Source: an uncultured virus (IMG/VR IMGVR_UViG_3300031134_000641) (taxonomy: Duplodnaviria; Heunggongvirae; Uroviricota; Caudoviricetes). From it: a stretch of DNA of 64,000 bases. The position numbers were made by a program, and so were the translations under genes. Under the pieces are notes generated by a model. That model had not been told where the DNA came from and searched no databases. It was given only the letters and a program-made list of their open reading frames with translations. The DNA is taken from the IMG/VR virus record IMGVR_UViG_3300031134_000641. One strand, 5' to 3'. Below, piece after piece: positions 1 through 64,000 of this stretch. Numbering within the stretch: position 1 is the first letter of the stretch; the number at the start of each line of letters is the position of its first letter.

Positions 1-612
1 CTAGCCTACTCTATCAGGGGCATACTTAAATGAGTACTTATTTGAACCCTCTGCTATGAACAGTCCTTTTACCTTTTTGCCCTGAGAGTTAACATAGGTC
101 ACTAGTTTTCCGCTGAGAATATCGTCGCTCACAGAACTCTTAGCAGATTCAGGCAGGGTCAGGCCTTTCTGCTCAGACAGCCAACTTTCAACCAAGGCAG
201 CCCGCTTTCCTTCGGAGTCACCATAGCCACTGACAGATGAGCCAGGAGAAGTAAGAGCCGAGCCAACCACTAAACCGATGATGATTGGGATGGAAGCAAA
301 AACTATCAAACTAGGGTTGTAGCGGACTATAAATATCATCGCCACTATAGCAGCAATAACCAACCCCATATAAAAGAATACAGCAGCTACGTTGGAAGCT
401 TGGGACTCAAAAAGAATAAAATCAGGGGAGCTAACATCAAGCTTTTCATTGGTGCTAGGAAGTCCGATGGGTACAAATGCCATCACTATTGTCAACATTA
501 TGAAGCCTAGACCCCCTAAAACTTTCCGAAGGCGGGTTGCACCTTTCAGCAAATTGATTTTGCCTCCTTTTACACCTTCAAAGGTGTCAGAGCCTGCGGT
601 TACAGAAGCCAT
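1..612 (-). CDS. Membrane protein, GVxGG paralog family A (copy 1)
   Basis: FEGVKGGKI N-terminal motif, 3 hydrophobic segments, C-terminal WL..GLT..G.F..KYSF shared with 9 paralogs. Confidence 0.85.
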   Translation of the reverse strand: MASVTAGSDTFEGVKGGKINLLKGATRLRKVLGGLGFIMLTIVMAFVPIGLPSTNEKLDVSSPDFILFESQASNVAAVFFYMGLVIAAIVAMIFIVRYNPSLIVFASIPIIIGLVVGSALTSPGSSVSGYGDSEGKRAALVESWLSEQKGLTLPESAKSSVSDDILSGKLVTYVNSQGKKVKGLFIAEGSNKYSFKYAPDRVG

Positions 613-769
613 AATCAGTTCATCTCTTCACTGCTAGGGTAAATGAAGACTTAATGTTTTCAATAGGCATAGAAGAAGTTTACCACATTAAGATGGCGTA
701 ACGGTCAAACCACACATCTATTTATGTCCGATAGAAATAGATGGTAAGCGCAACAAATTGGAGTATATT

Positions 770-1591
770 ATGTGCCGTGCTGGTGGAAGACGATGCCCGT
801 CACATAGCGACCCTAAATTAGTTGCCGAACGCAACAAGCATCGTAGGGAAGCTTATAAGCATGCCCACACTTCAGCAGTTGACGTTGACTCCCTGTTCAA
901 ACCGTTCACTGAATCCCGTGAAGCTGTTGAGCCTGGTACAGAGTCGTATCAGAAGTTCAGTCGTGCAGGCAGGACATTTAACAAGCGAATAACAGATGAA
1001 GAACGCCAGCATATTCGTGAGTACACAAAGATGGGATTCCGTGAGGTACGTGACTACCTGAACGGCCACCCTCTGCACAGTGAAGATGAAGAGTATGATG
1101 TTAGCGATGAAACTCGTAAGAATCTAGATGCACAGATAGAACACCTGGACTCAGCGTTAGCTAAAGCGCCTAAGCCAAGAGAACCCCGAACCTTATACCG
1201 TGGAATGGTTTCACCATGGTCAGCTAACGAGGACGTAGTTGGCTGGGTGTCAGAGAAGTTCCCAATCGGCAGTGTCGTTAACCACACAAGCTACATGTCA
1301 ACCAGCTTGCACATGCAAGTGGCAAAAAAGTTCACAGGCATAACTGAGGGCCGAGGTTTCATTATGGAGATAGTTTCCTCCTCAGGGGCAGCTTTGAATT
1401 ATGAAACCTCTGACTATGGCGAATCCGAAAGAGAAATCCTTCTCCCCCGAAATAGCAGCTTCAAAGTTGTCTCAATAACGCCGGATGTTGAGATAAACTA
1501 CGATGACTTACTGTTCAGGAAAATCAGAAAACGGACAGCAACTATGACTGTCATACGCTTAGTTGACACAAGCATTGCCGGAGAAGACTAG
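770..1591 (+). CDS. ADP-ribosyltransferase (VIP2/Alt-like R-S-E clade) with N-terminal MCRxGGRRC tag
   Basis: LYRG, YMSTS and ESEREILLPR catalytic motifs; start moved to ATG 770 (GGAG at 760-763; CCGATAG at 728-734). Confidence 0.85.
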   Translation: MCRAGGRRCPSHSDPKLVAERNKHRREAYKHAHTSAVDVDSLFKPFTESREAVEPGTESYQKFSRAGRTFNKRITDEERQHIREYTKMGFREVRDYLNGHPLHSEDEEYDVSDETRKNLDAQIEHLDSALAKAPKPREPRTLYRGMVSPWSANEDVVGWVSEKFPIGSVVNHTSYMSTSLHMQVAKKFTGITEGRGFIMEIVSSSGAALNYETSDYGESEREILLPRNSSFKVVSITPDVEINYDDLLFRKIRKRTATMTVIRLVDTSIAGED

Positions 1592-1605
1592 AGTAACCTT
1601 CAGCT

Positions 1606-2253
1606 TCACTCAGCGGGTGTCGTAGCAAAAGGATTAGGGAAAGTCTCGGGGACACGCTCAAAAGTGTATGTGTCATCAACTTTGTTATGCACAAACCGGC
1701 CTTCAATAATGTTGCCGTCTTCCTCAACGTACTCGTAAGTTCGCGGGCCAGTTATCGCGGTAACAGGGTTAGCTGCTTGGTCTGCAAATGTCAAGTTCTC
1801 ATTATCCGCTATCCATTTCACAATGGACTCTCTCGTGCCATCAGGTGTAGCTCCCACGCTCTCCAAGTGAGGTGCACCACCACTCGCCCACATAGTTCCG
1901 GCCCATACCGCTACCACAATGAAAAACAATTTGGGTTTAACCATGATAAGAGCGAACGCGACAACTATGGTTGCTATGATCAACAGCACCCACCATTCTG
2001 AAGTCAAATCACTTTGAGCGGGGACATATCTTATTTTCTCAGAAGAGCTAAAATCAAATGTTGCATAGTTGAAAGCATATGTGAGTGTAAGATACAGGCT
2101 GACTGCCATAGCAGCTAAACCAAATATGTACAAAGCAACTAGAGTAGGACCGCTAAGGTTCTCTAAGCTTGAGTGGGGAGAGCCTGAAGGAGAAGCAACA
2201 TTTCCACCGTTGACACCATTAAATTCGGTTTTTGTTTTGTTCATCAAAGACAT
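1606..2253 (-). CDS. Membrane protein, family A (copy 2)
   Basis: FNGVNGG, FDFSSSE, TM helices; start reassigned to 2253 (TGG-TATGGT-N6-ATG). Confidence 0.85.
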   Translation of the reverse strand: MSLMNKTKTEFNGVNGGNVASPSGSPHSSLENLSGPTLVALYIFGLAAMAVSLYLTLTYAFNYATFDFSSSEKIRYVPAQSDLTSEWWVLLIIATIVVAFALIMVKPKLFFIVVAVWAGTMWASGGAPHLESVGATPDGTRESIVKWIADNENLTFADQAANPVTAITGPRTYEYVEEDGNIIEGRFVHNKVDDTYTFERVPETFPNPFATTPAE

Positions 2254-2291
2254 GTGCTCACCATACCACGGAAACAAATTTTATCTGAGTG

Positions 2292-2921
2292 CTACCACGC
2301 ATCTACGCCAGTAGGTGGAAGGCGCTTAAAGCTATACTTGTCGTCGCCATTGTTGATAAACTTACCTGTAGTTACAGTCCCGCCTTTAGTGACAAACTCA
2401 TGCTCGCCACCACGAATGATAGCGTTCGCTGGCTTGAAGTTTTCATCAGCAAACGTTAGCCCCTCATTAGATTCTAACCAGTTAACAACAGACACATCAG
2501 TACCATCTGGCACTACACCGATTTTACCCCAGTCAGGCGATATACCGCCACCAAGATAAGTGCCCAACAAAATAGCACCAACAGGTAGGAAAGCAAGATA
2601 AGGTTTAGCGACAACCATTAAGAAGCCAAGGATGACGATTGCAATCAAGCCAACCAACCACCAACCTGATTTATACCCACTAGCAGGCTCAACATAGCTG
2701 ATACTAGAAGAAGAAACGAAGTTGAAAGTTGAATAGTTCAATCCTTTGCTCATGATGAAGTAGAGCATGAAGAATACAACTGCTAGACCTAGAAGATATA
2801 AGGCAGGAGCAGCTAGCCGTGAAATGGATAACCTGGGTTTAGGCGCTGATTGGTCATACTTGTCTAAAGAGATGACCGTGTTAACACTGACACCCGGAGA
2901 AGCGGAGATGGAATTAGCCAT
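2292..2921 (-). CDS. Membrane protein, family A (copy 3; GG motif degenerate)
   Basis: FNFVSSS, WLESNEGLT, GKF..DKYSFKRL; TGG-TAGAGT-N6-ATG. Confidence 0.85.
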   Translation of the reverse strand: MANSISASPGVSVNTVISLDKYDQSAPKPRLSISRLAAPALYLLGLAVVFFMLYFIMSKGLNYSTFNFVSSSSISYVEPASGYKSGWWLVGLIAIVILGFLMVVAKPYLAFLPVGAILLGTYLGGGISPDWGKIGVVPDGTDVSVVNWLESNEGLTFADENFKPANAIIRGGEHEFVTKGGTVTTGKFINNGDDKYSFKRLPPTGVDAW

Positions 2922-2941
2922 GTTCCTACTCTACCACAATA

Positions 2942-3559
2942 CTAATCATCTTTTGACTGCAAAGGGATACGGGAGAAAACATATTTATTCTCAGACTCTT
3001 CAGTGAACATTCCTTGGACAAGCTTGCCATCTCCATCAATCAACGTAAAGCTTCTATCATCTGCCAGAGAGATAGGAGGAGCATCCTCACCGGTTTGATA
3101 GATAGCCAGGCCTTCATTGGTAGCAATCCAGCTTTCTAAGGACCGTCCTGAATGGGTACCTCCTATGCTGTCAAAAATAACATTAGCCAGGAGTCCTCCT
3201 ATAACGAATAAGAAAAATCCAATAACAGATACAAAAGTAAGTGCTAAGGCCTCTCCAATACCGCACACTATACAAGCAGCCACTAAGCTAGCTAATATAG
3301 TCGCAAATCCAATCCACCCAAATACTGTAATATGGCTATCAAAAAAGCCTACATATTCTGAGGAGCTAAAATCATATCGGGGGATAGTGATTCCAAATAG
3401 ACCCGCGAGAATAGTTCCCCCAATACCAGCGATGAAGATTGTGCCTTCAATAATGTTTCGCATTCTACTTGGGGAGGAAGTTGCACCATCGCTAAGATTC
3501 TTAATTTTGCCACCGCTAACGCCATCGAAAGGAGAGTTGATACTGTCTAAAGAAGTCAT
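2942..3559 (-). CDS. Membrane protein, family A (copy 4)
   Basis: MTSL..FDGVSGGKI, YDFSSSEY, NEGL, KYVFSRI; TGG-TAAGAT-N6-ATG. Confidence 0.85.
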   Translation of the reverse strand: MTSLDSINSPFDGVSGGKIKNLSDGATSSPSRMRNIIEGTIFIAGIGGTILAGLFGITIPRYDFSSSEYVGFFDSHITVFGWIGFATILASLVAACIVCGIGEALALTFVSVIGFFLFVIGGLLANVIFDSIGGTHSGRSLESWIATNEGLAIYQTGEDAPPISLADDRSFTLIDGDGKLVQGMFTEESENKYVFSRIPLQSKDD

Positions 3560-3587
3560 AGTTTCATCTTACCATAAAAGCGGTCAT

Positions 3588-4190
3588 TTATTTTGATGGT
3601 AGAGGTATAAGAGAGAAAACATACTTGCCTTCGCTTTTCTCGGTAAATTTACCTCGGACAAGATTGTTATCCTCGTTAACCAGCAGAAAAGGAAATCCCC
3701 GAGAAATTACAGATGGACTGACGGGATTGCCAGTTTCTGTAAAAATAGTAAGCTTTTCGTTTGTAGTAATCCAGTTTTCTAAACTCCCTTTAGCAGGTGC
3801 ATTTGAACTTAAGCCTACCATCACGGAACAAAGCACAGTAAAAAGAACAACAATAACAGCAGCAAAGGTGTCTATTGCCCTCTTTGACAAGATACCATAC
3901 GCTAGGACAGCAAACAACGCAACTGCTATCAAAAACCAGCATGTTAATGTAATATGGCTTTCAGAGTAACTTACGTACTCAGCTGAGCCGAAGCCATAAG
4001 AACCCTCAGTAGTACCTGCCCACCCGCTAGCGACACTCGCACCTAAAGCAACAATGCATAGAGCAGTCAGTATAAAAAAGCGTCTTACTTTATTGACAGG
4101 ACGCGACACAGACAGGGGAGCCACAAACGGGTTTATTTTACCGCCACTAACACCATCAAAAGAAGAATCGGCGTTGCCTAAAGAAGTCAT
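3588..4190 (-). CDS. Membrane protein, family A (copy 5)
   Basis: MTSL..FDGVSGGKI, KYVFSL; start reassigned to 4190 (TGG-TACAGT-N6-ATG). Confidence 0.85.
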   Translation of the reverse strand: MTSLGNADSSFDGVSGGKINPFVAPLSVSRPVNKVRRFFILTALCIVALGASVASGWAGTTEGSYGFGSAEYVSYSESHITLTCWFLIAVALFAVLAYGILSKRAIDTFAAVIVVLFTVLCSVMVGLSSNAPAKGSLENWITTNEKLTIFTETGNPVSPSVISRGFPFLLVNEDNNLVRGKFTEKSEGKYVFSLIPLPSK

Positions 4191-4227
4191 AGTACCACTG
4201 TACCATAAGTCCGAGTAAGAATGTTCT

Positions 4228-4803
4228 CTACTCTTCAACTAGACGAGTGAACACATACTGGCCCTTGTTTTCTTCAACAAATACACCCTCGACTTTGCTA
4301 CCATCTTCATCAGTCAAAGAGAAGGTTCCTCCATTTGCTATTTTTTGAAGGCTGTGACCATAACCCTGGTATTGTTTGGGGCTTAATGTTAGTCCTTCGC
4401 TGGAAGCAAACCAATTTTTCAGAGCCTTTGAGTTACCAGAAGTTTCGATAGCCGAACCGAGATAGCCGACAATAAATCCTGCAACAAGCACGAATGCAGC
4501 TACCATAGTAAACAATTCTTTATGTGTAATAGAGAACAAAATGAAGAAGAACATAGTAATAGCAAGAGTCCACCAGCCTACACTGGCGCTGCTGGGAGAA
4601 TAGCCAATACTTTCAAGTGAACTGAAGTCATACGCATTACCACCTGAGAATTTGAAAGAAAAAATTAGTGGAAGTAAAACACCCAGCAAGCCAACTAACC
4701 CAGTCGTCAAATACAGGACCGGATGTTTATTAAAAAACGATGGAGAAACGACTCGGCCACCCTCAACGCCTTTGAAGTTTGCATTGTCATCTAAAGAAGT
4801 CAT
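4228..4803 (-). CDS. Membrane protein, family A (copy 6)
   Basis: MTSL..FKGVEGGRV, YDFSS, QYVFTRL; TGG-TAAGAT-N7-ATG. Confidence 0.85.
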   Translation of the reverse strand: MTSLDDNANFKGVEGGRVVSPSFFNKHPVLYLTTGLVGLLGVLLPLIFSFKFSGGNAYDFSSLESIGYSPSSASVGWWTLAITMFFFILFSITHKELFTMVAAFVLVAGFIVGYLGSAIETSGNSKALKNWFASSEGLTLSPKQYQGYGHSLQKIANGGTFSLTDEDGSKVEGVFVEENKGQYVFTRLVEE

Positions 4804-4926
4804 AAGTCCTATCTTACCATAAAAAGTTGGTCAGATAGGACTCGTGAAAAATATGCAACATTCGTTGTCTGCATTCTAGTTTTTCAATCTGATAGGGATA
4901 TAGCATCAACCAGATCAGGAGAAAAA

Positions 4927-5460
4927 ATGTCAAATCCATATCATGACGAACAAGGTCGTTTCTGTAGTAAAGCAGAGATGGGTGCAGCTATAAGTCGTCT
5001 AGCTGACTCAGGCAAAATGGATGAGTACTTTGTCCTGCGCACTGAGTACGAAAAGCTTTCCAACGAAACATTTGTGAAGCCTCAGCCTAAGAGTTCTAAG
5101 CCCTCTAACAAAGGCGCTAAGAAGAGCGCGCCCAAAGTCACAGGGAAGTATGATGGTAACACCAGAAGCTTGTTGGCCTCCTGGAAAGATGAAGGAATAG
5201 ATTACACGGAAGATCAAGCAGAAATTATTGACAAGTCAGTCAAAGATGCATATAGTTCCGGTTATACCAATGCTGTTGCGACAGAATTGGGAGACAGCCA
5301 GTCTTATACATACAAAGATTACTCTGCTAAGAAAAAAGCTAAAGAAGCCTTGGATAAAGCAGGGCTAGACCCCAGCAGGTCCATCCTTTTGGCCTCAACC
5401 ATAACGCATTTGGACAACGAATACGAATACGGTTACGGCGAAGGCGCAAGAGACTCCTGA
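4927..5460 (+). CDS. Hypothetical protein with N-terminal NPYHDxxGRF motif
   Basis: 177-aa ORF with AGGAG SD and downstream hairpin; begins MSNPYHDEQGRFCS. Confidence 0.75.
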   Translation: MSNPYHDEQGRFCSKAEMGAAISRLADSGKMDEYFVLRTEYEKLSNETFVKPQPKSSKPSNKGAKKSAPKVTGKYDGNTRSLLASWKDEGIDYTEDQAEIIDKSVKDAYSSGYTNAVATELGDSQSYTYKDYSAKKKAKEALDKAGLDPSRSILLASTITHLDNEYEYGYGEGARDS

Positions 5461-5468
5461 TAAGAAAA

Positions 5469-5512
5469 ATAAGGCTGGGGTGAACAACACATGTTGTTCA
5501 CCCCAGCCTTAT
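5469..5512. terminator. Bidirectional hairpin between convergent genes
   Basis: ATAAGGCTGGGGTGAACAACA / TGTTGTTCACCCCAGCCTTAT, 21-bp perfect arms. Confidence 0.8.
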
Positions 5513-5516
5513 CTAA

Positions 5517-6776
5517 TTAGACAGAGAACGTTTCTTTTCCGACAGCAGAGAAGTTCTTCACACTACCAGTAAGACTCATGCTACCAGGGTCTTCATACCA
5601 GTTCACATAGCGTGTGACACCATCAGCACTGTAACCCCGGCTAGGGTCTTTGACAACATCTGAAGAAGTCTTAGGAGAAGAATCATTCTCATCATCCACC
5701 ACAGTGTTTGACACTTCAACAGATTCATCAAGCTTAAGCTCATAAAGGTAGAACTTCTTGTTAGCTTTCTTCTTTTGTGCAGGTGTAAGACCCTCACTCT
5801 TCTCAAACACCACAGCCTTAGCACGCATCAGAGATGACTCACGTGAACCCACATGAATGAACAAATGATCATCCTTCAGAGAGTCATCGTGGGCGTTAAC
5901 TGAGGCAACCCAGTTAGGGTTAGAGGAAGCATGGTACCAAGTGCTTTTCTTGACCTCGTTAACATCCATCATCTGTATGCCATGGTCAATCAAGTATGTC
6001 TCCCCGCTAGGGAAGAAGTCTGTACCACAGTGAGGGCAAAGACACTTCTCGCCATTGTAAGAAGCTAAAGCCTCCTCTTTGCTAAGGAACCTGCCGCACT
6101 TGAAACATCTGACACCAGAGTAGCCTTCAGGAGCCATAGCATAGAAATCGTCTGGGCGCTCACTAGCTTTAAATCTGCCAGAGAAGAACTCTTTAGGGTT
6201 GTCAGGGTCGTATGTTCCTCTGCCATGACGGTCTAGTTTCTGTTTGCCTTTAACTCGTGAGTTAACTGGTTTCATAGGCAAACTTGTTGGAGCTTTGTCA
6301 GCAGGGGCTGAACCGTCAAACTCAACAACGTTGAAGCCTTTGAACACGCTCTTAAACAAAGACATGAACGACTTGTTTTTCTTCTGTTCCTCCGTGATGG
6401 TTACTTTAGCTGGAGAAGCCTTAGGTTTAATATCACCGGCAGAAGATTGTGATTGTGAAGCAGGTTTGCTCTTCTGAGTAAAAGGTGAAATATTTTTGCT
6501 GTAAGAGACAGAGGCAGGAGATTTTTTGGCTGCTACTTTCTTATCCCAATTCTCTACATATGTTAAAGCGTCAGGGTGAGCCAGGAATGTGTTAACATCC
6601 TCTTTAGTCAACTGAGCAGTTGTCTTCTTTATACCCTGAGACTCTTTCCACCAGACTTTAGATGCCTGGAACACATTGTTCTCAATATGTTGACCACCAG
6701 TTCGGCATTTGATTCTAGCTGGACAGTTAACCCATTCGTCCTTCTTAATACCGGACGCGGCAATATGTTTACTCAT
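5517..6776 (-). CDS. Cys-tagged protein with zinc ribbon and possible ART-like C-terminal domain
   Basis: N-terminal CPARIKC..H; CFKC/CPHC pairs; C-terminal WYHAS..HVG..LYEL..YVNWYED; ART-like call tentative. Confidence 0.6.
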   Translation of the reverse strand: MSKHIAASGIKKDEWVNCPARIKCRTGGQHIENNVFQASKVWWKESQGIKKTTAQLTKEDVNTFLAHPDALTYVENWDKKVAAKKSPASVSYSKNISPFTQKSKPASQSQSSAGDIKPKASPAKVTITEEQKKNKSFMSLFKSVFKGFNVVEFDGSAPADKAPTSLPMKPVNSRVKGKQKLDRHGRGTYDPDNPKEFFSGRFKASERPDDFYAMAPEGYSGVRCFKCGRFLSKEEALASYNGEKCLCPHCGTDFFPSGETYLIDHGIQMMDVNEVKKSTWYHASSNPNWVASVNAHDDSLKDDHLFIHVGSRESSLMRAKAVVFEKSEGLTPAQKKKANKKFYLYELKLDESVEVSNTVVDDENDSSPKTSSDVVKDPSRGYSADGVTRYVNWYEDPGSMSLTGSVKNFSAVGKETFSV

Positions 6777-6842
6777 ACTATATAGATAACGAGTTAAGCA
6801 AAGCCTGGGGAAGATGAGGCCTACTGACAGTGGAGTTTACTG

Positions 6843-7478: not shown

Positions 7479-7512
7479 GCTCTCATCCTACCACAAAAAC
7501 ACGCGAGCAGGA

Positions 7513-8136: not shown

Positions 8137-8170
8137 GCTCTCACCCTATCACAAAAGCTTATCAGCAGAA

Positions 8171-8866: not shown

Positions 8867-8900
8867 ACTCTCATCTTACCACAAAAACACACAAGCGGAA

Positions 8901-53878: not shown

Positions 53879-53881
53879 TAA

Positions 53882-55305: not shown

Positions 55306-57678
55306 GTGAAAAAATTTCTAGCCCGAAAAAACGAGAGTGGCTTTACCTTAATTGAGGTTTTGGTTACCCTCGCTGTTTTTGCTGTCATTGCAGTTATAGC
55401 TACGTCAGTAATCGTCTCTCTAAACAACACTGCTGCTCGTTTTGGTACTACATCTACCACACAGAACGATTTGACTACAGCAGCAGCACAGATTAACCGT
55501 GATATTTCCAGCGCAAGCAACTTTGTCCGTGCGGAAGATAAGTTACTTGAGGTTAAAACAAACTTCGGTGATCGGACTGAAAACACTATCATCTTTGCTT
55601 ATGTGCCTGGTTCACCTGTACCATCAGGTGTGCAGCAAGCTAACCTACCGAACTATCCTGCTATAGTCCGTCAGGTTACAAGCTCAACAGGAACTACACC
55701 TACATCCCGTGTTCTTGTGCCAGGCTTTGATGCCACAGCACAAGCTAACCCTTTGTTCGCTTACTTTGACGGACGAAACGTGAAAATTTCTACACCTGTT
55801 GAAGGTGACACTAAACTTAAGTCAATTTCACGTGTTCAGTTCTTTATTTCAGCTAAAATTGATGACCGTGCGCTTCCTGTGGAACTAGCTTCTTCTGCTA
55901 CCCCGCGAACAATTGGTACGGAAACTAACAACGCTGGTTCAACACCTCAGATTCCTGCTGCACCATTCTTAACTGGTAAGCTAACTCCTAGTGCAACAAC
56001 AGCTGACCTTAGCTGGACGATCCCTGAGGGAGCGACTTCTTACACTCTTTACCGTATCAACAATGATACAACAAAAGTTGTAAGTATTATCCCTAACCCG
56101 GCAACTAACACGTTCAGTGATACAGGACTCACCAAGGGTGAGAAATACACTTACTATGTTGTAGCTTCTGGCCCTGGTGGAATCTCTCCTCAGTCAAACA
56201 AGGTTAACCTAACTGTTGTGCCTGATAAGGCTATCATTGTTAACATCAACTCTACTAAGCAGCTAGCTGATGTTAAATCTGGTTCTACATCCGAGTCTGG
56301 AACAAGTAACCCTCTAGCCTCAGCTAAGTACACTGTTGCTCGTAACCTTACTAACCAGATTACTTGGAAGCCTGTTTTCGGTGCTGAAGGATACTACGTT
56401 TACCAGAACGGTTCAACAACACCTATGGCATCTGTTGGCCCTAACACCACAACTGCTACAACTACAGCTGCCTACGGTGCAGTACGTACCTATACTGTAA
56501 TCGCTTGGAACAGCGGTGACAACGGTTCTGGTGGAAATGGTCTAGCTTCTGACTCTGTTCAGCTTATTAGCCCTCCAACAGCGCCTGGTATTACTGCGCT
56601 TGCAACTAACAGCACTTCAACTATCAACCAGATTACTGTTTCAACTCGCCCAGCGAACTCTGATGGATTCAATATTTATGCTGCATCCAACAACTCTGGT
56701 GTAGTTAACTGTTCAACAGTAACTAAGAGGGTAAGCCTTAACAATGTGTCACCTTACAGCTACAAGGACGAAACCGTAGCATGGGGTAGCTCATCTTGTT
56801 ACGCAGCATCTGGATACAATGATGCTGGTGAAGGTCCTCGTGGTGCAGCTGACATTGAGAACAAGAAGGCTGGCCCATTCTCCGCTACAAGCTTTGATGA
56901 GGTATCACTACGTTATGCAGTAGATGGTTACTTCGGTTTCGCTTCATCTGGCAACAACTCTTCTGGTATCCTGAACTGGTCAGCTTCTCAGAACGTTGGT
57001 AAGTATGTTGTCAAAAAGAGCGAACCTCAGCTTCCTAGTCCAAATGATGGTCGCTTAGATGGTATTACCACAACTGAGACAGGTGCGACAGCAGCTGGTT
57101 ATGGCGTGCTAACACCTGGTTCAGGTTATGTTGCAGATATCTTCTCTTGTGCCCCGTGGTACACTGGAAGCAGTGTCGCGGATGGTGTTACAACAGGTAA
57201 CAACGACTTGGACAACGCTGAGTCTGGTTGCCGTATGGTCCGTACAACATTCATGACTTCACCTGATGTTCCAATTGAGACTCATTCCTTGATTCAGACT
57301 CGTCAGCCTAGCCCTTGGGTACGTCGCGCAACTAACGTATACGCATGGACACGAAACGGTTCTGTAACAAGCGTTCAGGCTAAAGCATGGTTTGACAGTC
57401 AGGGTGAACCAGGTTGGGCTAACTTCGGTGCAGCCGTAGGTGCATCAGCCAACGCTTACTCTGGTGAGACAACTGGTGGGCAGAACACAAGTGGTCGTTC
57501 ACGTTCATACTTGAGCCTACCGGGTTATGGTACAAAGTACTCAGATACTGTTTCTTGGACAGGTGTTGTTGCTACAGCCCCAGGTTGTACAACAGCTTGT
57601 GGTCAGAACTTCGCTAACGTTGCTGAGACTGCACCAACCTACTATGCTGGTCACCACGCTTACTACGTAGCTAGGTAA
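55306..57678 (+). CDS. Large minor pilin with fibronectin-III-like repeats (adhesin)
   Basis: ESG|FTLIEVLV; LSW..GATSY..Y.Y.VVA FN3 pattern; CCGATA at 55266-55271. Confidence 0.85.
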   Translation: MKKFLARKNESGFTLIEVLVTLAVFAVIAVIATSVIVSLNNTAARFGTTSTTQNDLTTAAAQINRDISSASNFVRAEDKLLEVKTNFGDRTENTIIFAYVPGSPVPSGVQQANLPNYPAIVRQVTSSTGTTPTSRVLVPGFDATAQANPLFAYFDGRNVKISTPVEGDTKLKSISRVQFFISAKIDDRALPVELASSATPRTIGTETNNAGSTPQIPAAPFLTGKLTPSATTADLSWTIPEGATSYTLYRINNDTTKVVSIIPNPATNTFSDTGLTKGEKYTYYVVASGPGGISPQSNKVNLTVVPDKAIIVNINSTKQLADVKSGSTSESGTSNPLASAKYTVARNLTNQITWKPVFGAEGYYVYQNGSTTPMASVGPNTTTATTTAAYGAVRTYTVIAWNSGDNGSGGNGLASDSVQLISPPTAPGITALATNSTSTINQITVSTRPANSDGFNIYAASNNSGVVNCSTVTKRVSLNNVSPYSYKDETVAWGSSSCYAASGYNDAGEGPRGAADIENKKAGPFSATSFDEVSLRYAVDGYFGFASSGNNSSGILNWSASQNVGKYVVKKSEPQLPSPNDGRLDGITTTETGATAAGYGVLTPGSGYVADIFSCAPWYTGSSVADGVTTGNNDLDNAESGCRMVRTTFMTSPDVPIETHSLIQTRQPSPWVRRATNVYAWTRNGSVTSVQAKAWFDSQGEPGWANFGAAVGASANAYSGETTGGQNTSGRSRSYLSLPGYGTKYSDTVSWTGVVATAPGCTTACGQNFANVAETAPTYYAGHHAYYVAR

Positions 57679-57698
57679 TAACCGATATAGTAAGTGTC

Positions 57699-58847
57699 AT
57701 GATCACTTATCTCAAGAACCACAAAGTATTAGCCATCTGCTTGGCTGTAGTGTTAGCTATCCTAGTTATCCTGGGTACCACCACTACAGCCAAGCAGATT
57801 AATGCTAAGAAGACAGCTAACGCCCCTGTGCAGCAGGTAACAGACAGCACTGTTGGAACAGCTATCAACTCAGTCATCCCCGATGGAAAAAATGCTAGCA
57901 CTATGGTGGCACCTGGTACGGAGGACTGGTGGAATGCTATCTCTGATTTTGTTCCCGCATATAACCTGGCAGGTATGTCTTACTCTGAAATGCCAGCTAA
58001 ACCCTCTCAGCTAGGGTGGACAGTAAGTTACTCTGACGAAATTCAAAGTGACTTCAACTTTGGCCTCAACAGTGTCTTTTTGACATTTAACTCAGAAGAT
58101 GATGCCGCGAAAGCTACAGAATGGCTTGCTTCTACAGGAAACAATGAGTTCCAGCCTGTTACTAAAGGCAAAGTTGTAGTGCTGGCTCCAGCATGGTCAG
58201 ATGTTAACCGTGACCTTCTATTAAAGGATTACACAGGATTGCAGGAAAGCGCTGATGTTACTCCAGACAAAGGCTACTGGAAAGTTGACTTCGCTACTTT
58301 GAAGGAAGTGTTTGTTACAGACGCAACTTCTACAGTGTATGACAAAGCAGTTACAGACTTAGGTTTCAATACTAAATCTGAAGAGTCTGTATGGTACGCT
58401 TCCTCTACTGATGGCCTCACATGGAATGGATACTTCAATGAAGGAGTATGGAATCATGAAAACCTTGATGCTGAAGCATTTAAGAATGATATGCTAGCGA
58501 CTTCAGTAGACAGTGTTGACACATCAAACACAGGTATTCCTGAAGGCTCAAGCGGTGACATTCAGTACACTACAGAGCTAAACCAAGCCCTCATTCTAGA
58601 TTATGTTGCAATTCAGACTAAAGAACTTGGTGTAGGCTTTGTGACAGACTTCGCTACAGGAGACACTGTAACACCTGAGCCTCTTAAAACTGATGACGAA
58701 ACTAAGTTGAGTATTAACCCTAACGCTTGGTTCTCAGTCATGAGTGGCCGACCGGATGTTCCCGTGTACTTCAACTACGATCTAGCTACTTTAACGTTCA
58801 ATAACTCTAACACAGACATGAATATCACATTCTCAAAAACGTCTTAA
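57699..58847 (+). CDS. Membrane-anchored/secreted protein
   Basis: N-terminal TM; CCGATA at 57682-57687. Confidence 0.8.
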   Translation: MITYLKNHKVLAICLAVVLAILVILGTTTTAKQINAKKTANAPVQQVTDSTVGTAINSVIPDGKNASTMVAPGTEDWWNAISDFVPAYNLAGMSYSEMPAKPSQLGWTVSYSDEIQSDFNFGLNSVFLTFNSEDDAAKATEWLASTGNNEFQPVTKGKVVVLAPAWSDVNRDLLLKDYTGLQESADVTPDKGYWKVDFATLKEVFVTDATSTVYDKAVTDLGFNTKSEESVWYASSTDGLTWNGYFNEGVWNHENLDAEAFKNDMLATSVDSVDTSNTGIPEGSSGDIQYTTELNQALILDYVAIQTKELGVGFVTDFATGDTVTPEPLKTDDETKLSINPNAWFSVMSGRPDVPVYFNYDLATLTFNNSNTDMNITFSKTS

Positions 58848-58876: not shown

Positions 58877-60064
58877 ATGACTTACAATATTGCTTTCTTT
58901 GCAGACTCCCATGTTGGCTACCGTGCTAAGGTCGGTAACAACGAAAAAGGTATCAACATCCGTGTTCAGGATGGCTATGATGCTTTTAGGGAAACCCTAG
59001 ATCAGATAGTCAAAAGTGATATCAAGATTGACGCTGTAGTTCACGGTGGAGACCTCTTCCACGAGAGCAAACCAACAATGCGTGATATCACGACAGTGCA
59101 ACATTACCTTCGTTTGTTAGCTAAAAGAGGTATTCCCTTCTACGGTCTAGCTGGTAACCACGACGCCACCGACATTCGTGCCGAGATAGCCGCTGTAGCG
59201 CCCGTTAACGACCCGGACAAGGGTATCTTCGCTCTGTATGAGCCTTATGCTAAATACGAGCTTACAGACGGTCTGGTGCTCCATTCAGTATCACACCACG
59301 GACTGGCTAACGGTGATGCTCCAAAAATTGAAGCATCAAGCGATGTAGTTAACATCTTTACCACCCATGGAGCAGCACTTGACCCTAAGAATCAGGAGCT
59401 AATGCACTGTGAGGGTTCACCACGTGAACAGATGATTCCTGTTGACCTGATCTTAGATGACACTTTTGCTGTCAAACTTCTAGGTCACTATCACAGCCGC
59501 TACGCTGTTGGTGGTGAAATCTTGAACACATGGTATTCAGGGTCAGCGGTACGCCGTGGATTCTCTGACTCACCAGGAGCGCGAGGGTGGCTTCTAGTTC
59601 AGGTCGAAGAGAACGGTGAGGTGACAGTCTCACCACGCAACATTAAACAGCGTCCACAGTATGACTTAGATATCATTGATGCTGAAGGTATGAACTCAAA
59701 TGATGTTATGGACCTTCTAGAGTTGAACATGAATCGTACAAAAGAGGCTGAGAAAGCTCCTATTGTGCGCCAGAAGATAATTAACGCACCACGTAGTGTA
59801 CGTGAAGGAATGGATAGGCTCAAAATTGGTGAGCTATCAGAACACATGCTGGACTGGAACCTTAAGATAACAAGCCCTGAGGTAACTAAAACAACATCTA
59901 GCAAGCGGGACCTCACACTCAAAAAAGGCTCAATCAATATTATTGACCACTACAAGGAGTGGGCTAAAGCCGAAGCTGCTAACGTTCCTGAAGAGTTCCG
60001 TGAGGCTGTTCTCCATGATGTTGAAAAGTATCTCAAAACAGCCCGCGAAATCCACGAACACTAA
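58877..60064 (+). CDS. sbcD: SbcD/Mre11 nuclease
   Basis: DSHVG, GDLFH, GNHD, LGHYH, YSGS metallophosphoesterase motifs. Confidence 0.9.
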   Translation: MTYNIAFFADSHVGYRAKVGNNEKGINIRVQDGYDAFRETLDQIVKSDIKIDAVVHGGDLFHESKPTMRDITTVQHYLRLLAKRGIPFYGLAGNHDATDIRAEIAAVAPVNDPDKGIFALYEPYAKYELTDGLVLHSVSHHGLANGDAPKIEASSDVVNIFTTHGAALDPKNQELMHCEGSPREQMIPVDLILDDTFAVKLLGHYHSRYAVGGEILNTWYSGSAVRRGFSDSPGARGWLLVQVEENGEVTVSPRNIKQRPQYDLDIIDAEGMNSNDVMDLLELNMNRTKEAEKAPIVRQKIINAPRSVREGMDRLKIGELSEHMLDWNLKITSPEVTKTTSSKRDLTLKKGSINIIDHYKEWAKAEAANVPEEFREAVLHDVEKYLKTAREIHEH

Positions 60065-60115: not shown

Positions 60116-62365
60116 ATGATTAAACTGCAATCAATTAGAATCAGAAACTTTCGTGCAATCGCTGATGTTACCTTCAAGCCGCTAACAGAAGGTATTACAG
60201 GTATTTCCGGAAGCAACGGTGCCGGTAAAACAAGCTTCCTTTCAGCTACAATGTTTGCATTGTTCGGGGAAAAGCCACCTGAGGCCTCAGTCGCGTCCTT
60301 GCGCCGTACAGGGTCAACAGGCGAGTGCTCTGTTTCTGTTGTGTTTACACACCTTAAGCAGACTGTTGAGGTTGTGCGTGAGATTAAAGGTAAGTCAAAC
60401 ACAATTCTTGTTGACATTTATGTTGACGGTGTGCCTGAGACTGTTACAAGTGTGGGTGCAGCTAACCTTTGGATATCACAAAGGCTTGGTGTGGATGCAG
60501 CCGGGTTCTTAACTGCTTTTGTTATCCGCCAGAAAGAGCTTGACCAATTGATTACTGCCCGCCCAGCTGAGCGCAAAAGAATTATTGAGCGTCTAGCTGG
60601 TATTGACACAATCAACCACGCTCTTAAGGCTGCTCGTGATGATGAGAACAACGCTAAGAAAATTCTTGGAAACCTTCCTGGCTCTGAAAGCAACGTGGAA
60701 GAATCAGAAGAACAGCTTAATATGCTTGCTGACAAAATGGTTCAGCTGGAAGCAAACTGGGAAAGCGAACAGAAGCAGCAGAGAGAGCTAACCGCCAAAC
60801 AGCGTGAGTTACAGTCTTCTGTAGACACCATGCGCGATATAGAGTTCTCTGTTTCACGCAAGGAGTCTGAGCTTAGTAACTTAGTGAACGAGGTCTCTAA
60901 CTTAGAAAGCCGAAACGAGAAGCTTGCCTACTTGGACCAGGTGTCAGATATCGGGGATATCCAGTCTCTAAGAGACCGTCATCTTGAGGTAACAAGAAGT
61001 CTCAACGAGAAATCTCAGAACCTTGCTTCATACAAAGTAAAGCAAGACAACACTAAGAACACTTTGATCCGTATTCAGAAAGAGCTTCTGTCACAGACAA
61101 CAGCCCTTAGTATGCTTACTGTGCCCTCAGAGAGCCTAGAAACTTTGAGGACAAAGCTTGAGGATAACTCTGGAGCAGAATCAGGCATCATAACACGTCA
61201 GAGCGTGCTACGTAGCAAAATAGCTGATTTAGAAGCCTCAATTTCTGTCTTAGAGCATTCAACTGACTGCCCCACATGTCATACAGAGTTGGCTGACCCT
61301 GCTGGCCTTGTTGGCAGATTCCAGGATGAAGCTAGAACGCACCGTGAGGATATCTCCAAGCTTGAAGAGGAACGTCAGCAGCTAATCGTTGACAGTCAAA
61401 GTACCCAATCTCTCATCGCGGCTTCTCAAGAATACGAAAGAATTTCAGAGAGCATCAAGTCATTGAACTCTGAAGTTGACTCTCTCCAAAAAGAGGATGA
61501 TAGCAGCATTATTGAGAAACTTGAAAGCGAAGTTGAAGCTTTAGAGGCAGACAAAACAACTATCACTGAGCTTGGTTTTAAAGCTAAGTCTCTCAACGAA
61601 GATACCGTTGAGCGCAACTCAAATATTGCTAGGTTGAGAGAGATAGCTCAGCTGTCTTCCACACTCGAAAATGAGATCTCTGGCCTCAAGAAAAACTTCT
61701 CAGCTGACAGGTTAAGCAAGTTACGTATTGAGTTAGTCAAAGTGCAGCAAGCTTCAGATGCTAAAGCGCCGCTGATTGAGTCGTTGTCCAATGACAGGTC
61801 TGCTACCAATAGCAAGCTGGCTATGTCCAAAACAAACTATAAGAACGCTAAAGACCAGTGGGACAGGAAGAAAGACCTTATGCATCAGCAGCAGCGTCTA
61901 GCTTTGACCACTGACATGATTGATAAATACCGTTCCAACACAATCTCTTCTTTGGCTCCTAGCTTGTCTGAGTACGCCACCTCGCTAATTAGTGAGATAA
62001 CAAACGGGGAGTTCACTGAAGTTCTGTTGGATGATGAGTTCAATGCAAGCGTTGTTGACTCTACAGGTAACACCCGACCTGTGTCCTGGCTGTCTGGTGG
62101 AGAAGTATCAGCTGTAGCACTATCAATGCGTATTGCTATTGGTCTTCTTATCACAGATGGAAACCCTGAGTTGCTTTGGATGGATGAGGTTCTTACAGCA
62201 CAGGACGTCGACCGTAGGACAGCTATGCTTTCAATGATTCGCGGGCTTCCTATTGACCAGATCATTATGATTAACCACACTCATGAGGCAGCGGACATTG
62301 TTGACAAGACTATTTCTCTAAACATTGACCGAATTAACGGGTCTTACATCTCTGAAGATGAGTAA
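60116..62365 (+). CDS. sbcC: SbcC/Rad50 SMC-like ATPase
   Basis: GSNGAGKT, coiled coil with CPTC hook, LSGGE, MDEV. Confidence 0.92.
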   Translation: MIKLQSIRIRNFRAIADVTFKPLTEGITGISGSNGAGKTSFLSATMFALFGEKPPEASVASLRRTGSTGECSVSVVFTHLKQTVEVVREIKGKSNTILVDIYVDGVPETVTSVGAANLWISQRLGVDAAGFLTAFVIRQKELDQLITARPAERKRIIERLAGIDTINHALKAARDDENNAKKILGNLPGSESNVEESEEQLNMLADKMVQLEANWESEQKQQRELTAKQRELQSSVDTMRDIEFSVSRKESELSNLVNEVSNLESRNEKLAYLDQVSDIGDIQSLRDRHLEVTRSLNEKSQNLASYKVKQDNTKNTLIRIQKELLSQTTALSMLTVPSESLETLRTKLEDNSGAESGIITRQSVLRSKIADLEASISVLEHSTDCPTCHTELADPAGLVGRFQDEARTHREDISKLEEERQQLIVDSQSTQSLIAASQEYERISESIKSLNSEVDSLQKEDDSSIIEKLESEVEALEADKTTITELGFKAKSLNEDTVERNSNIARLREIAQLSSTLENEISGLKKNFSADRLSKLRIELVKVQQASDAKAPLIESLSNDRSATNSKLAMSKTNYKNAKDQWDRKKDLMHQQQRLALTTDMIDKYRSNTISSLAPSLSEYATSLISEITNGEFTEVLLDDEFNASVVDSTGNTRPVSWLSGGEVSAVALSMRIAIGLLITDGNPELLWMDEVLTAQDVDRRTAMLSMIRGLPIDQIIMINHTHEAADIVDKTISLNIDRINGSYISEDE

Positions 62366-62389: not shown

Positions 62390-62418
62390 ATTTTTCAAAG
62401 ACCTAAAGGATTTGAAAA

Positions 62419-63429
62419 ATGAGCGAACCACAGAACCATGATGAATGGGTTAACGACTACAGCGACGAGTACAACCAGGACACTGACGGTGAAGCCGGAT
62501 TTGCCTCTGGTGAGGTAATTGTTCTTGATGTTGACAATGCTCCTGCTTTTGCATCAAACGATGAGTCTGAGCACATCACTGTAGTCCAGGTAGACCCTAA
62601 CACTGGTCAAGAAGTTATTGAAACAATTGACCTTTCCTTGCCTCCCCTCACTGTTGAGCAGTCAAAGGATATTACTGAGAGAATTCGTACGACAACCAAC
62701 GTTCTTTACCTGCTTATCAAGCGCGCTCACGCTGGAAAAGCTCACAAAGCACTAGGTTATGACAACTTTGAGGCATATGTGAATGCAGAGTTCAACATGT
62801 CACGTTCATACGCATACAAGCTTCTCAACCAGGCTAACATCATTGCTGCCATTGAAGAGAAAGCTCCTGAGGGAACTCAGATTCATGTTGGAGATGCAAC
62901 TGCTCGTAGCCTGAAGAAAGTTCTTCCTGAGCTTCTTTCTGAAGTTGAAGAAAAAACAGCTGGTCTTAGCGCCGACGAAGCTGGTGACGTTATTGAAGAC
63001 GTTATCAACAACATGCGTGAGCAGAAACGTCAGGCTGACGAGGATGCATTAGATGACGAGGATGGCGATGAGCCACGTCAGTTTGACGGTCCTTACACTG
63101 GCGAATACAACGGTGCAAGCTATGATGATGACGATGATGAAGATGACGACGAAGTTGACGAGTTCCTTGACGGTGACCCAGGCGAGGCACGCAGGAAGTT
63201 TGATAAGCTCTACAACCTTTACTCTGGTCTAAAAACCATTTCAATCGTTGATGACCCTAGTGAACTGTTGGACTTCATTCCTACAGACCGTAAAGAAGAA
63301 ATTCGCGGTCTTCTTGATACAGCAATTCCACTACTCAATGCTTTCAATGAGCAGTGGAATGCATATGAAGCTGCTAACCCAACAACTTCTGATGATGAAT
63401 CTTTTGCTGAAGACGATTCTGACGAATAA
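62419..63429 (+). CDS. Acidic protein with central HTH-like domain
   Basis: LGYDNFEAYVNAEFNMSRSYAYKLL motif of mobile-element proteins; D/E-rich flanks. Confidence 0.75.
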   Translation: MSEPQNHDEWVNDYSDEYNQDTDGEAGFASGEVIVLDVDNAPAFASNDESEHITVVQVDPNTGQEVIETIDLSLPPLTVEQSKDITERIRTTTNVLYLLIKRAHAGKAHKALGYDNFEAYVNAEFNMSRSYAYKLLNQANIIAAIEEKAPEGTQIHVGDATARSLKKVLPELLSEVEEKTAGLSADEAGDVIEDVINNMREQKRQADEDALDDEDGDEPRQFDGPYTGEYNGASYDDDDDEDDDEVDEFLDGDPGEARRKFDKLYNLYSGLKTISIVDDPSELLDFIPTDRKEEIRGLLDTAIPLLNAFNEQWNAYEAANPTTSDDESFAEDDSDE

Positions 63430-63497
63430 ACACAAGAAAAAAAGATACAACCGATATATATACTGTAACGTCCCCCAATCATAAGGAAAAAAGGAAA

Positions 63498-63755
63498 ATG
63501 AAAGATATGCTTCTTAAGGCTTCCGTTAACGCAAGCCTCGCAAAAGACCGTGTTGCTGATAAGTTAGGCCGCGCTGCTCGCGGCGAGAGCGGTGACGTTG
63601 TTCAGGTTATCCTGATCATCGCATTGTTCGTTGTTATCGTTCTAGTAGTAGGACGTATCCTTACTTCAACCATTACTACTCAGGCAAACAACGTTGGTAA
63701 CTGTATCTCTACTTCCAACGCATCTAGCTCTGCTGCATGTAAGAACTTCAAGTAA
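63498..63755 (+). CDS. Flp/Tad-like small pilin
   Basis: 85 aa, RGESG then hydrophobic helix; AAGGA SD; CCGATA at 63451-63456. Confidence 0.6.
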   Translation: MKDMLLKASVNASLAKDRVADKLGRAARGESGDVVQVILIIALFVVIVLVVGRILTSTITTQANNVGNCISTSNASSSAACKNFK

Positions 63756-63757
63756 AA

Positions 63758-64000
63758 TTAACTTGCTAGTACCAAACCAGCTATGAAAGTTATAGCTAGG
63801 ACGGGAAGGAAAGGCGTTGCTCGCCTTTCCTTCCCTTTTGGGTTTAACCAAGACTTTTTCTGTGGACGCATTTCGCCCCAATTGAAGATTCTACCTAACA
63901 CTAGTGAGCAGACCAGCTGTAATGCAGCCGCTGCGCCAAAAATGTAAACAAAGCTGTTTATGCCCATCCACCAGCTTGCTCCCCAACCTGCGATGTAGAG
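63758..64000 (-). CDS. C-terminal part of probable prepilin peptidase (A24), partial
   Basis: Frame open to window edge (LYIAGWGASWWMGIN..); ends TPFLPVL like the PFxPxL motif; next to a pilin; catalytic Asp residues lie outside the window. Confidence 0.5.
   Translation of the reverse strand, partial: LYIAGWGASWWMGINSFVYIFGAAAALQLVCSLVLGRIFNWGEMRPQKKSWLNPKGKERRATPFLPVLAITFIAGLVLAS

Follow-up and report, generated by a model that had tools for sequence, protein, structure and literature searches.

The element considered here is represented by a stretch of DNA of 64,000 nucleotides (nt) from record IMGVR_UViG_3300031134_000641, the whole of which is called the window below, and its closest described counterparts include the huge phages and megaphages. 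The largest phage genome that we found in print is that of BF3, with 841,704 bp, on which virus-detection tools disagree (10.1101/2025.01.14.633092), and a review from 2026 cites a phage genome of 735 kb (PMC13282480). The element shares with these phages a very large genome recovered as a single long contig, a majority of genes without known family, replication and recombination genes of its own, homing endonucleases and auxiliary metabolism. In contrast to them, it extends to about 885 kb with relatives of up to 1.0 Mb, displays no virion gene in the window, was not found in IMG/VR, and carries a DnaE of actinobacterial affinity, a sigma-28-type factor with promoters of its own, a minor-pilin module and many membrane proteins.

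Two further groups of phages resemble the element in particular genes. NAD-jumbo phages, such as Kuafu_71 with its pncB-nadD-nadE cluster, are likened to the window by its clustered nadE, nadD-like and pncB genes in the company of an NAD-consuming ADP-ribosyltransferase; the described phages come from animal gut and reach 716 kb (PMC11662467), whereas in the element the nadD-like protein scores below the NCBIfam cut-off and a palindromic, operator-like site, common to nadE and pncB, lies ahead of the hexamer CCGATA. Actinophages with DnaE (Streptomyces phages of around 50 kb and Saccharomonospora phage PIS 136) have an actinobacterial-type DnaE and genes for vWA-TerF-like and ADP-ribosyltransferase proteins, as the element does, but their DnaE is only 41-42% identical to that of the window and belongs to its sister group, and their genomes are 10-20 times smaller. 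The G+C content of Streptomyces-type genomes is high, as compared to 45% in the element.

Outside the phages, actinobacterial WhiG sigma factors control type IV pilus genes, and in Rubrobacter and Actinoplanes a WhiG/FliA regulon places a sigma-28-family factor beside pilin genes with a -10 element of GCCGATA type (PMC8325347), an arrangement that recurs in the window. The element differs in that the box also precedes replication, NAD, cell-wall and unassigned genes, at about one per 3 kb, in that no conserved -35 TAAA accompanies it, and in that the sigma factor is at most 33% identical and presents no Pfam region 4. Finally, the Borgs and jumbo elements of Methanoperedens also measure from several hundred kb to around 1 Mb, have few annotatable genes and are ambiguous between plasmid and virus; their hosts are archaeal and their gene content is different, the likeness being one of description only (PMC12660748, PMC13444090).

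By its gene content and promoter architecture, the window is better accounted for as part of a mobile element or virus than as chromosomal DNA. In our estimate, the chances are about even that the window is a slice of a megaphage-like virus whose host has gene expression of the actinobacterial type. More tentatively, and at somewhat less than even chance, we propose a clade of bacterial viruses of 0.7-1.0 Mb, larger than any phage found in print (841.7 kb), which would infect actinobacterial-type hosts on plants and elsewhere, run an expression programme derived from sigma-28 and remodel the host surface by means of a pilin module and arrays of membrane proteins.

Replicon size, occurrence and lineage

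Seven of ten proteins sampled across the whole window were present, letter for letter, on contigs of up to 884,011 and 885,359 bp, and cluster-mates with at least 90% identity to window proteins were found on contigs of 663,129, 603,234 and 337,993 bp. The two maximal contigs, which are nearly equal in length and may stem from related samples, suggest a complete replicon of about 885 kb. This agrees with the megaplasmid or jumbo-phage scale put forward in a preliminary description of this DNA, and 884-885 kb lies well within the range of huge or jumbo phages (200 kb or more), a comparison that counts only if the element is a phage. Relatives of its DnaE with 50-61% identity were located on contigs of 0.19-1.0 Mb; one DnaE cluster was carried by contigs of 787,832, 791,393 and 791,407 bp, and others reached 907,852 and 1,000,729 bp. 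Homologues of the sigma factor (43-79% identity) occurred on contigs that match in size eight of those bearing DnaE, and thus sigma factor and DnaE appear to travel together in the clade. This is an undescribed clade whose members assemble as contigs of 0.7-1.0 Mb; the replicon of the window occurs in plant-surface communities.

Contigs 90-99% alike to positions 1-20000 were obtained from three runs, namely X3 (straw metagenome), X5 (plant metagenome) and X8 (labelled with a coded organism), and a phyllosphere run, which may be the source, was identical to the window stretch. Runs with small shares (X10-X19) were left out of the comparison, and none of the runs listed was of RNA. A 93.7-kb contig of X3 was colinear over all 20 kb at around 96.6% identity, with one replaced segment, in which positions 12294-13482, including a gene of no assigned function (12443-13297), gave way to 889 other letters. 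Contigs of X5 tiled positions 1-20000 at 90-99% identity with the gene order kept, save for one missing unit of the paralogue family A, and short contigs of X8 covered parts of the same region. These contigs from other runs indicated strain-level variation and a sound assembly.

The tree of DnaE comprised 68 rows (IQ-TREE quick search, LG+G4, with support from the SH-like approximate likelihood ratio test, SH-aLRT, only), one of which, L064, is a long-branch translation artefact. The window sequence fell into a clade of 32 rows with an SH-aLRT of 100, the sister group of which contains both Actinomycetota and DnaEs of IMG/VR contigs, the latter taken to be actinophages; DnaEs of Patescibacteria, Nitrospirota/Omnitrophota and Bacillota were placed outside the clade. 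A DnaE match was obtained in 284 of 301 sampled genomes of Patescibacteria, the best with 683 bits at 39% identity and none above 41%, as compared to 928 bits and 45% for a genome of Actinomycetaceae. An affiliation with Patescibacteria (candidate phyla radiation) was rejected on these grounds, DnaE being nearer to the actinobacterial genome and the patescibacterial sequences lying outside the clade of the window. The identity of PncB was 53% to an actinobacterial PncB and 36-40% to those of Bacillota, while NadE shared 61% identity with the protein of an actinobacterium and 57% with that of a lactic-acid bacterium. The actinobacterial character that the preliminary description had read from DnaE and PncB is therefore upheld as an affinity (45 and 53% identity, sister group in the tree), but the DnaE clade itself is separate from both actinobacteria and actinophages.

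For RecG, whose phylogeny had been proposed as a check together with that of DnaE, the comparison was limited to a small panel of five genomes and leaned to Bacillota: two of these (408 and 382 bits) and a Patescibacterium scored above two actinobacteria, in which the matches were fragmented. Searched by tblastn against phages, RecG mostly matched unannotated records named as Listeria, Enterococcus and Staphylococcus phages and human faecal contigs named 'Bacteriophage sp.' (35-40%), which we suspect to be bacterial recG rather than phage genes. Although the panel is small, mosaic affinities of this kind are more in keeping with a mobile element than with a coherent line of cells.

Close relatives were scarce in the databases searched, in line with the earlier suggestion that the lineage is not yet described. 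The closest DnaE was 41.9% identical in isolate phages, 42.6% in plasmids (PLSDB, tblastn) and 47% in IMG/VR (alignment search). Species representatives of GTDB, searched with the relative P0050, gave nothing closer than 46%, and the 725-kb contig of P0050 was not among them. An exact 60-mer of the window had no match in IMG/VR, two window stretches of about 25 kb had no megablast match among phages (INPHARED) or plasmids (PLSDB), and nothing close was returned by tblastn against phages with the sigma factor or with P0069. NCBI was listed as the source for only three of the 68 best DnaE matches (P0050, P0058 and P0069), and none of the 22 DnaE-matching proteins with an NCBI organism name exceeded 47% identity. 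Intein domains were present in 33 of 120 listed DnaE relatives. No description of the lineage and no phage genome above 841.7 kb was found in the literature, the genome lists in supplements on huge phages lying outside this search.

Two relatives of DnaE deserve separate mention. L001, the sole clade relative from one metagenome scan, encodes a DnaE 55% identical to that of the window on a 48-kb contig of 39% G+C, and its protein also occurs on a contig of 151,520 bp; the 16 kb examined displayed a prepilin gene near dnaE (L001 sites noted: 8221-9099(-), 2275 and 15517-15933), an HNH endonuclease and many small open reading frames (ORFs) without family match. G001, an NCBI assembly labelled Parcubacteria with 'viral-cat' in its isolate name, contains a DnaE-like gene in three pieces (34-39%) that lies outside the clade of the window, and may be a bin of viral contigs instead of a cell.

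Gene content and promoter classes of the window

A greedy set of 70 non-overlapping ORFs of at least 50 amino acids (aa) occupies 95% of the window, the G+C content of which varies between 43 and 49% along its length (about 45% for the replicon), so that the DNA is not high in G+C, as had been remarked. Families were searched with Pfam and PHROGs on 56 proteins, relaxed thresholds included, and with NCBIfam on 31. A Pfam match at E <= 0.001 was obtained for 23 of the 56 proteins and none for the other 33, and a PHROG match at E <= 1e-5 for 18 of them. All the genes named in the preliminary description (DnaE, RecG, SbcCD, a DnaC-like ATPase, sigma-28, PncB and pilins) were recovered by these scans (Table 1), which also found a GNAT gene, and its paralogue accordions corresponded to two arrays in all-against-all BLASTP. 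Its statement that ribosomal, tRNA-synthetase and central-metabolism genes are lacking held in the Pfam, NCBIfam and relaxed scans, and the same is true of capsid and terminase genes in the Pfam and PHROG scans of the window. The 64 kb contained neither tRNA nor tmRNA, nor any Rfam family at gathering score; none of the markers of a bacterial chromosome (rRNA, tRNA, ribosomal-protein or synthetase genes) was thus seen within the window. Transposase, transporter and classical regulator families were not matched in it by Pfam, nor Rep, ParA or other partition, relaxase, type IV secretion system (T4SS) and FtsK-like translocase families by Pfam and NCBIfam, and no tandem repeats were found.

The DnaE of the window combines PHP, polymerase core, finger, HhH and OB domains with an NCBIfam equivalog score above the cut-off, and it presents the motif DDISGNGAYTHLT at residue 102. 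Directly 5' of its gene lies a free-standing Hef-like homing endonuclease (PHROG 3339 at 1.6e-89 and PHROG 559 at 2.2e-82), the family of which was found by tblastn in 429 phage records, often in several copies. The proteins SbcD and SbcC scored higher with archaeal Mre11/Rad50 models and with PHROG 77/100 than with bacterial SbcCD models, the pair resembling the gp46/47-type nuclease of phage T4. To credit the element with its own replisome, as the preliminary description did, is too strong: polymerase, loader and helicases were confirmed, but the window showed neither a clamp nor its loader, and neither a primase nor a DnaB-type helicase. Over dnaE (16001-20000), GC skew was +0.25 and AT skew -0.26, the coding strand being rich in G+T and the G+C content (48-49%) above that of most of the window.

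A Preiss-Handler cluster for NAD+ extends over 41369-44972, with PncB and NadE above their NCBIfam cut-offs and the NadD-like protein below. Near-identical stretches of about 45 nt precede nadE (41295-41335) and pncB (43613-43653), each with a palindrome of the type ATACTCA-nnn-TGAGTAT ending at CCGATA; to judge from its layout, the palindrome looks like a candidate operator for an NAD-responsive repressor that would overlap the promoter. As palindrome and CCGATA lie ahead of pncB, the start of this gene should be downstream of 43653, probably near 43680 and not at the TTG at 43596.

Two short motifs recurred at gene starts. The first one, TGnTAnnnT, ended 6-9 nt before the start codon in 14 of 70 genes, as compared to 125 of 6640 start-like codons (1.9%); these genes were seven copies of family A (box 6-7 nt before the ATG of each), the ATP-grasp gene, dnaE, a family B-like gene, the GNAT gene, a gene for a membrane protein, the loader gene and sbcD. 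An extended -10 element so close to the start codon implies that transcription would begin at or next to this codon, giving leaderless mRNAs from promoters without -35. Leaderless, -35-less promoters are typical of actinobacteria. Canonical sigma-70 two-box promoters were not enriched in the window (17 vs. 24.4).

The second motif, CCGATA, occurred 28 times against 10.35 expected, a count that none of 100 shuffles reached. Seventeen of the 28 occurrences were intergenic, co-oriented with a gene and 1-60 nt upstream of its start, and two more were so placed before dnaE and pncB; dnaE is thereby preceded by both types of motif. The approximately 19 genes served include those of the ADP-ribosyltransferase, several membrane or secreted proteins, the GNAT protein, DnaE, the M23 peptidase (7 nt upstream), NadE and PncB, as well as the pilin at 45903-46364 (12 nt upstream), three of the four genes of the minor-pilin module, the protein at 62419 and the sigma factor itself, about 40 nt upstream of its own start. 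In the 77-nt gap between the sigma and pilin-like genes (53160-53236), two CCGATA boxes overlap back to back and would form a divergent pair of promoters belonging to the same class. The flagellar -10 consensus GCCGATAA, which FliA/WhiG sigma factors recognize, has CCGATA as its core (PMC8325347).

The sigma factor of the window, the true start of which is probably the ATG at 53159, had FliA/WhiG as its best-scoring subfamily though below the NCBIfam cut-off, and Pfam recognized region 2 only, without region 4. Its nearest solved relatives were 6pfj/6pfv, which bear only the title 'RNA polymerase sigma factor', along with 6pmi and 1rp3, both structures of FliA; the WhiG chain 7lq4 scored much lower, and its identity to named cellular FliA/WhiG proteins did not exceed 33%. 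No conserved -35 was detected upstream of the CCGATA boxes, which may relate to the divergent region 4 of this sigma factor.

From these motifs a two-tier expression programme is plausible, with leaderless genes dependent on the host sigma factor and genes dependent on that of the element. The TGnTAnnnT promoters would be read by the housekeeping sigma factor of the host, yielding leaderless mRNAs for family A, DnaE, the loader and SbcD. The element carries replication and recombination genes of its own, for DnaE, DnaC-like loader, RecG, Suv3-like helicase, Mre11/Rad50-like nuclease, RNA ligase and dCMP deaminase. The class (G/A)CCGATA would be read by the FliA/WhiG-type sigma factor, which would also drive its own gene. 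In this second wave, the ADP-ribosyltransferase and the peptidase would be expressed along with the NAD genes, the pilins and numerous envelope proteins. Any virion genes would lie outside the window.

Origin of the element

The reading as a phage-like virus draws on content typical of phages: the Hef-like endonuclease by dnaE, the Alt-like ADP-ribosyltransferase, the gp46/47-like nuclease, the RNA ligase, the dCMP deaminase, the pncB-nadD-nadE set and the dedicated sigma factor. The inteins of DnaE relatives, the majority of genes without known family and the lack of transposase, transporter and ordinary regulator matches in the window also speak for it. Several results weigh against it. Neither Pfam nor PHROG, relaxed thresholds included, detected capsid, portal, terminase, tail or baseplate genes in the window, and the PHROG rows of 'head' or 'tail' category came solely from the generic ADP-ribosyltransferase, M23 and fn3 domains; the missing virion genes nevertheless say little about the whole replicon, of which the window is about 7%. 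Hydrophobic segments of membrane type were present in 28 ORFs of at least 75 aa, which together with the type IV pilin module is unusual for a phage. The replicon, at 885 kb, surpasses the largest phage found in print (841,704 bp; 10.1101/2025.01.14.633092), and no member of the clade appeared in scans of IMG/VR with DnaE, a DnaE alignment (best match 47%), the helicase, SbcC and the hairpin pattern. As for the promoters, a scan for the complete sigma-28 consensus (TAAA-N14-17-GCCGATAA, 2 mismatches allowed) gave no enrichment (15 sites vs. 14.0 in shuffles), so that only the -10 core supports the sigma-28 reading, and in the relative L001 the enrichment of CCGATA was not significant (8 vs. 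4.67, reached by 17 of 200 shuffles), the hexamer being found there 12 nt before dnaE and just upstream of two other ORFs.

A possible, though doubtful, explanation is that of a giant non-viral extrachromosomal element, megaplasmid or 'Borg-like', which would reside in an actinobacterial-type host, replicate by means of its own DnaE, be expressed through its own sigma factor, remodel the host envelope by pilins, membrane paralogues and a peptidase, and never be packaged. The 64 kb without virion gene, the absence of the clade from the IMG/VR scans, a size of 0.7-1.0 Mb in excess of every phage found in print and the many envelope proteins with the minor-pilin module speak for it. The protein at 62419-63429, with its helix-turn-helix-like segment, could serve partition, and the structure search with family B listed some weak rows of PcfJ-like type; PcfJ occurs in conjugative plasmids. 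However, families of relaxase, T4SS, Rep and ParA were not matched in the window, nor were those of transposases, transporters or ordinary regulators, and PLSDB contained neither a megablast match nor a DnaE above 42.6% identity by tblastn. It is rather in large phages that one would typically meet a homing endonuclease, inteins, an Alt-like ADP-ribosyltransferase, a gp46/47-like nuclease and an NAD cluster, and with about 45% G+C the element is remote in composition from those actinobacteria to which its genes are similar.

It is improbable that the window is an accessory island in the chromosome of a reduced-genome bacterium (0.7-1.0 Mb) distantly related to Actinomycetota. Leaderless, -35-less promoters would be expected there as an actinobacterial trait, reduced or episymbiotic bacteria have genomes as large as these replicons (the sampled Patescibacteria mostly had 0.5-1.5 Mb), type IV pilins, RecG, DnaE, NadE and PncB are ordinary cellular genes, and a monophyletic and deep DnaE clade (SH-aLRT 100) is what a cellular lineage should produce. 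Yet 64 kb of a genome below 1 Mb would hardly be devoid of tRNA, ribosomal-protein, synthetase and core metabolic genes, 33 of 56 proteins had no Pfam family, RecG and DnaE differ in the phylum that they indicate, dnaE has a homing endonuclease gene as its neighbour and inteins are common among the relatives. The lineage was near-absent from NCBI-sourced proteins, and the search of GTDB representatives with P0050 revealed no close relative. A sigma-28-type box before nadE, pncB, dnaE, peptidase and GNAT genes is also unlike cellular use; in a whole Rubrobacter genome, 20 matches to the sigma consensus are given (PMC8325347).

An assembly chimera of phage-like and bacterial pieces, to which the range of G+C (43-49%) and the strong skew at 16-20 kb might point, is very improbable given that the X3 contig is colinear and the X5 contigs tile positions 1-20000 in the same order but for one replaced segment and one missing unit, that seven of ten proteins from across the window recur on the same long contigs, and that both promoter motifs occur along the entire length of the window.

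If the element is a virus, the known upper limit of phage genome size would move towards 1 Mb, by virtue of a diverse clade and not of a single genome, and this clade would prove to be missing from current catalogues; a non-viral element would be for bacteria what the giant extrachromosomal elements are for archaea. In both cases, it would be a mobile element in which a flagellar/pilus sigma factor has been turned into a general promoter system alongside leaderless promoters of host type. The element also points to a host of actinobacterial type for DNA low in G+C, a pairing that composition-based binning would never link.

Paralogue arrays and other genes

Table 1. Features of the window with their positions, strands and supporting matches.
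Feature	Position	Strand	Basis
Family A, ten tandem paralogues, ~200 aa	1-9491	-	BLASTP all-against-all, 20-41% identity
Family A, individual copies	1-612, 1606-2277, 2292-2921, 2942-3559, 3588-4238, 4228-4803, 6843-7478, 7513-8136, 8171-8866, 8901-9491	-	
ADP-ribosyltransferase, C3/Alt-like	770-1591	+	Pfam ADPrib_exo_Tox 1.9e-18; PHROG 3895, 802, 595; CCGATA at 728
vWA-TerF-like	9653-10426	+	Pfam 1.9e-51
TerD-like	10426-11121	+	Pfam 6.2e-4, below cut-off
ATP-grasp_Ter	11190-12251	-	Pfam 5.7e-24
Hef-like homing endonuclease, free-standing	13276-15000	+	DUF4379 zinc fingers and MTES_1575 nuclease (Pfam)
DnaE (DNA polymerase III alpha)	15045-18740	+	NF004226 1139.5 vs. cut-off 1002; five Pfam domains
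dCMP/cytidine deaminase-like	18722-19273	+	Pfam 5.4e-6; PHROG 174
Terminator hairpin, perfect 20-bp stem	19288-19333	.	
Family B C-terminal domain, stand-alone copy	19340-19981	-	BLASTP 1e-19 to family B
SpoU/TrmH-type RNA 2'-O-methyltransferase	22495-23091	+	Pfam SpoU_methylase 4.9e-23; NCBIfam
Family B, three tandem paralogues, ~600 aa	23203-28484	+	BLASTP
Membrane-anchored protein	29305-30180	+	Hydrophobic segment; no family match
Secreted Cys/Gly-rich protein	30165-31628	+	Sequence inspection; no family match
Cytoplasmic zinc-motif protein	31714-32562	+	Sequence inspection; no family match
Lipobox-bearing protein	32711-33925	+	Sequence inspection; no family match
RNA ligase-like	35115-35726	-	Pfam 2.7e-6; PHROG 548 at 5.5e-15
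Suv3-like DExQ helicase	37820-40354	+	Pfam 8.5e-26; 320-aa N-terminal region without assigned function
M23 peptidoglycan endopeptidase	40391-41239	+	Pfam 4.7e-26; 23 PHROG families; N-terminal hydrophobic segment
NadE	41369-42190	+	NF001979 392 vs. cut-off 250
NadD/NMNAT-like	42319-43545	+	TIGR00482 32.9 vs. 112.45 (below cut-off); Pfam cytidylyltransferase-like match only
PncB	43596-44972 (ORF)	+	NF006698 555.7 vs. cut-off 531
DnaC/IstB-like AAA+ helicase loader	45057-45872	+	Pfam IstB_IS21 2.5e-6; PHROG 3277, 50
Type IV (pseudo)pilin	45903-46364	+	N_methyl 27.9 vs. cut-off 21.2; GspG, PilA, ComGC N-terminal matches
RecG helicase	47465-49741	-	NCBIfam 702.6 bits vs. cut-off 718, just under
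FliA/WhiG-type sigma factor	52425-53198 (probable start ATG 53159)	-	TIGR02479 129.5 vs. cut-off 189.6, below
Pilin-like protein	53237-53878	+	Prepilin N_methyl 16.8, below cut-off 21.2
DUF7305/PilX-like minor pilin	53882-55180	+	Family scans
790-aa prepilin with fn3 domain	55306-57678	+	PF07963 34.6 vs. cut-off 21.2
Membrane-anchored 382-aa protein	57699-58847	+	Last gene of minor-pilin module 53237-58847
SbcD (Mre11-like)	58877-60064	+	Pfam, PHROG, NCBIfam
SbcC (Rad50-like)	60116-62365	+	Pfam, PHROG, NCBIfam
Acidic 336-aa protein	62419-63429	+	Central helix-turn-helix-like segment; PHROG 464 (1.9e-5)

Each protein of family A bears the motif F-x-GV-x-GGK near its N-terminus and a small beta domain at its C-terminus, and has three membrane helices; the AlphaFold2 (AF2) model, with a predicted local distance difference test score (pLDDT) of 69, was too weak for a structure search. 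A collection of 5.8 billion proteins contained five members, all from the species-level group of the window and none from outside it. In run X5 a unit of 658 nt (7431-8090) was missing, and in run X8 a stretch of 632 other letters stood in place of the copy at 2889-3540. Family A thus varies in copy number and content between samples, which indicates that the arrays expand and contract.

Family B was represented by only 27 representative clusters among 1.84 billion proteins. Its AF2 model was confident (pLDDT 78.8), and Foldseek gave no match at E <= 0.001 in the PDB, nor did the atlas yield a usable match; the peak of the VIA wide search (Z 5.9) was within the range of noise. Besides the weak PcfJ-like rows mentioned above, a single BFVD match (E 4.6e-5) led to an unnamed viral protein, and tblastn against phages returned nothing.

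The prepilin N-terminal methylation motif (PF07963) was above its cut-off in two proteins, with a third one below it (Table 1). Type IV pilus assembly ATPase, platform protein and prepilin peptidase were not found in the window by Pfam and NCBIfam, and these parts may come from the host or from elsewhere in the replicon. The Ter-type module (9653-12251) gave matches to PHROG 5359 and 22042, and relatives of its vWA-TerF protein were found in 252 phage records, of which many are from actinophages. The longest ORF at 22402-23100(-) was discarded as a low-complexity shadow of the SpoU methyltransferase gene on the opposite strand.

The ADP-ribosyltransferase probably starts at the ATG at 770, with the N-terminus MCRAGGRRCPSH. 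A cysteine motif, C-x5-8-C, usually followed by x2-5-H, recurs in several unrelated proteins of the window. It is located at the extreme N-terminus in three of them, namely the ADP-ribosyltransferase (MCRAGGRRCPSH) and the products of the genes at 20271, where the histidine is missing, and 32711. In the products of 5517-6776(-) and 31714, it lies 17-18 residues from the N-terminus. The motif may represent a zinc knuckle or else a targeting tag shared by these proteins. The 36 nt at 782-817 match further contigs of the same runs, indicating that more genes of the element begin alike.

At the hairpin 19288-19333, the summed contig depth was around 8-9 times that of the flanks in runs X1 and X3, and several other contigs matched it; this terminator sequence appears to be reused around the genome. 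Further terminators with 20-bp stems were located at 5467-5514 and 11130-11176.

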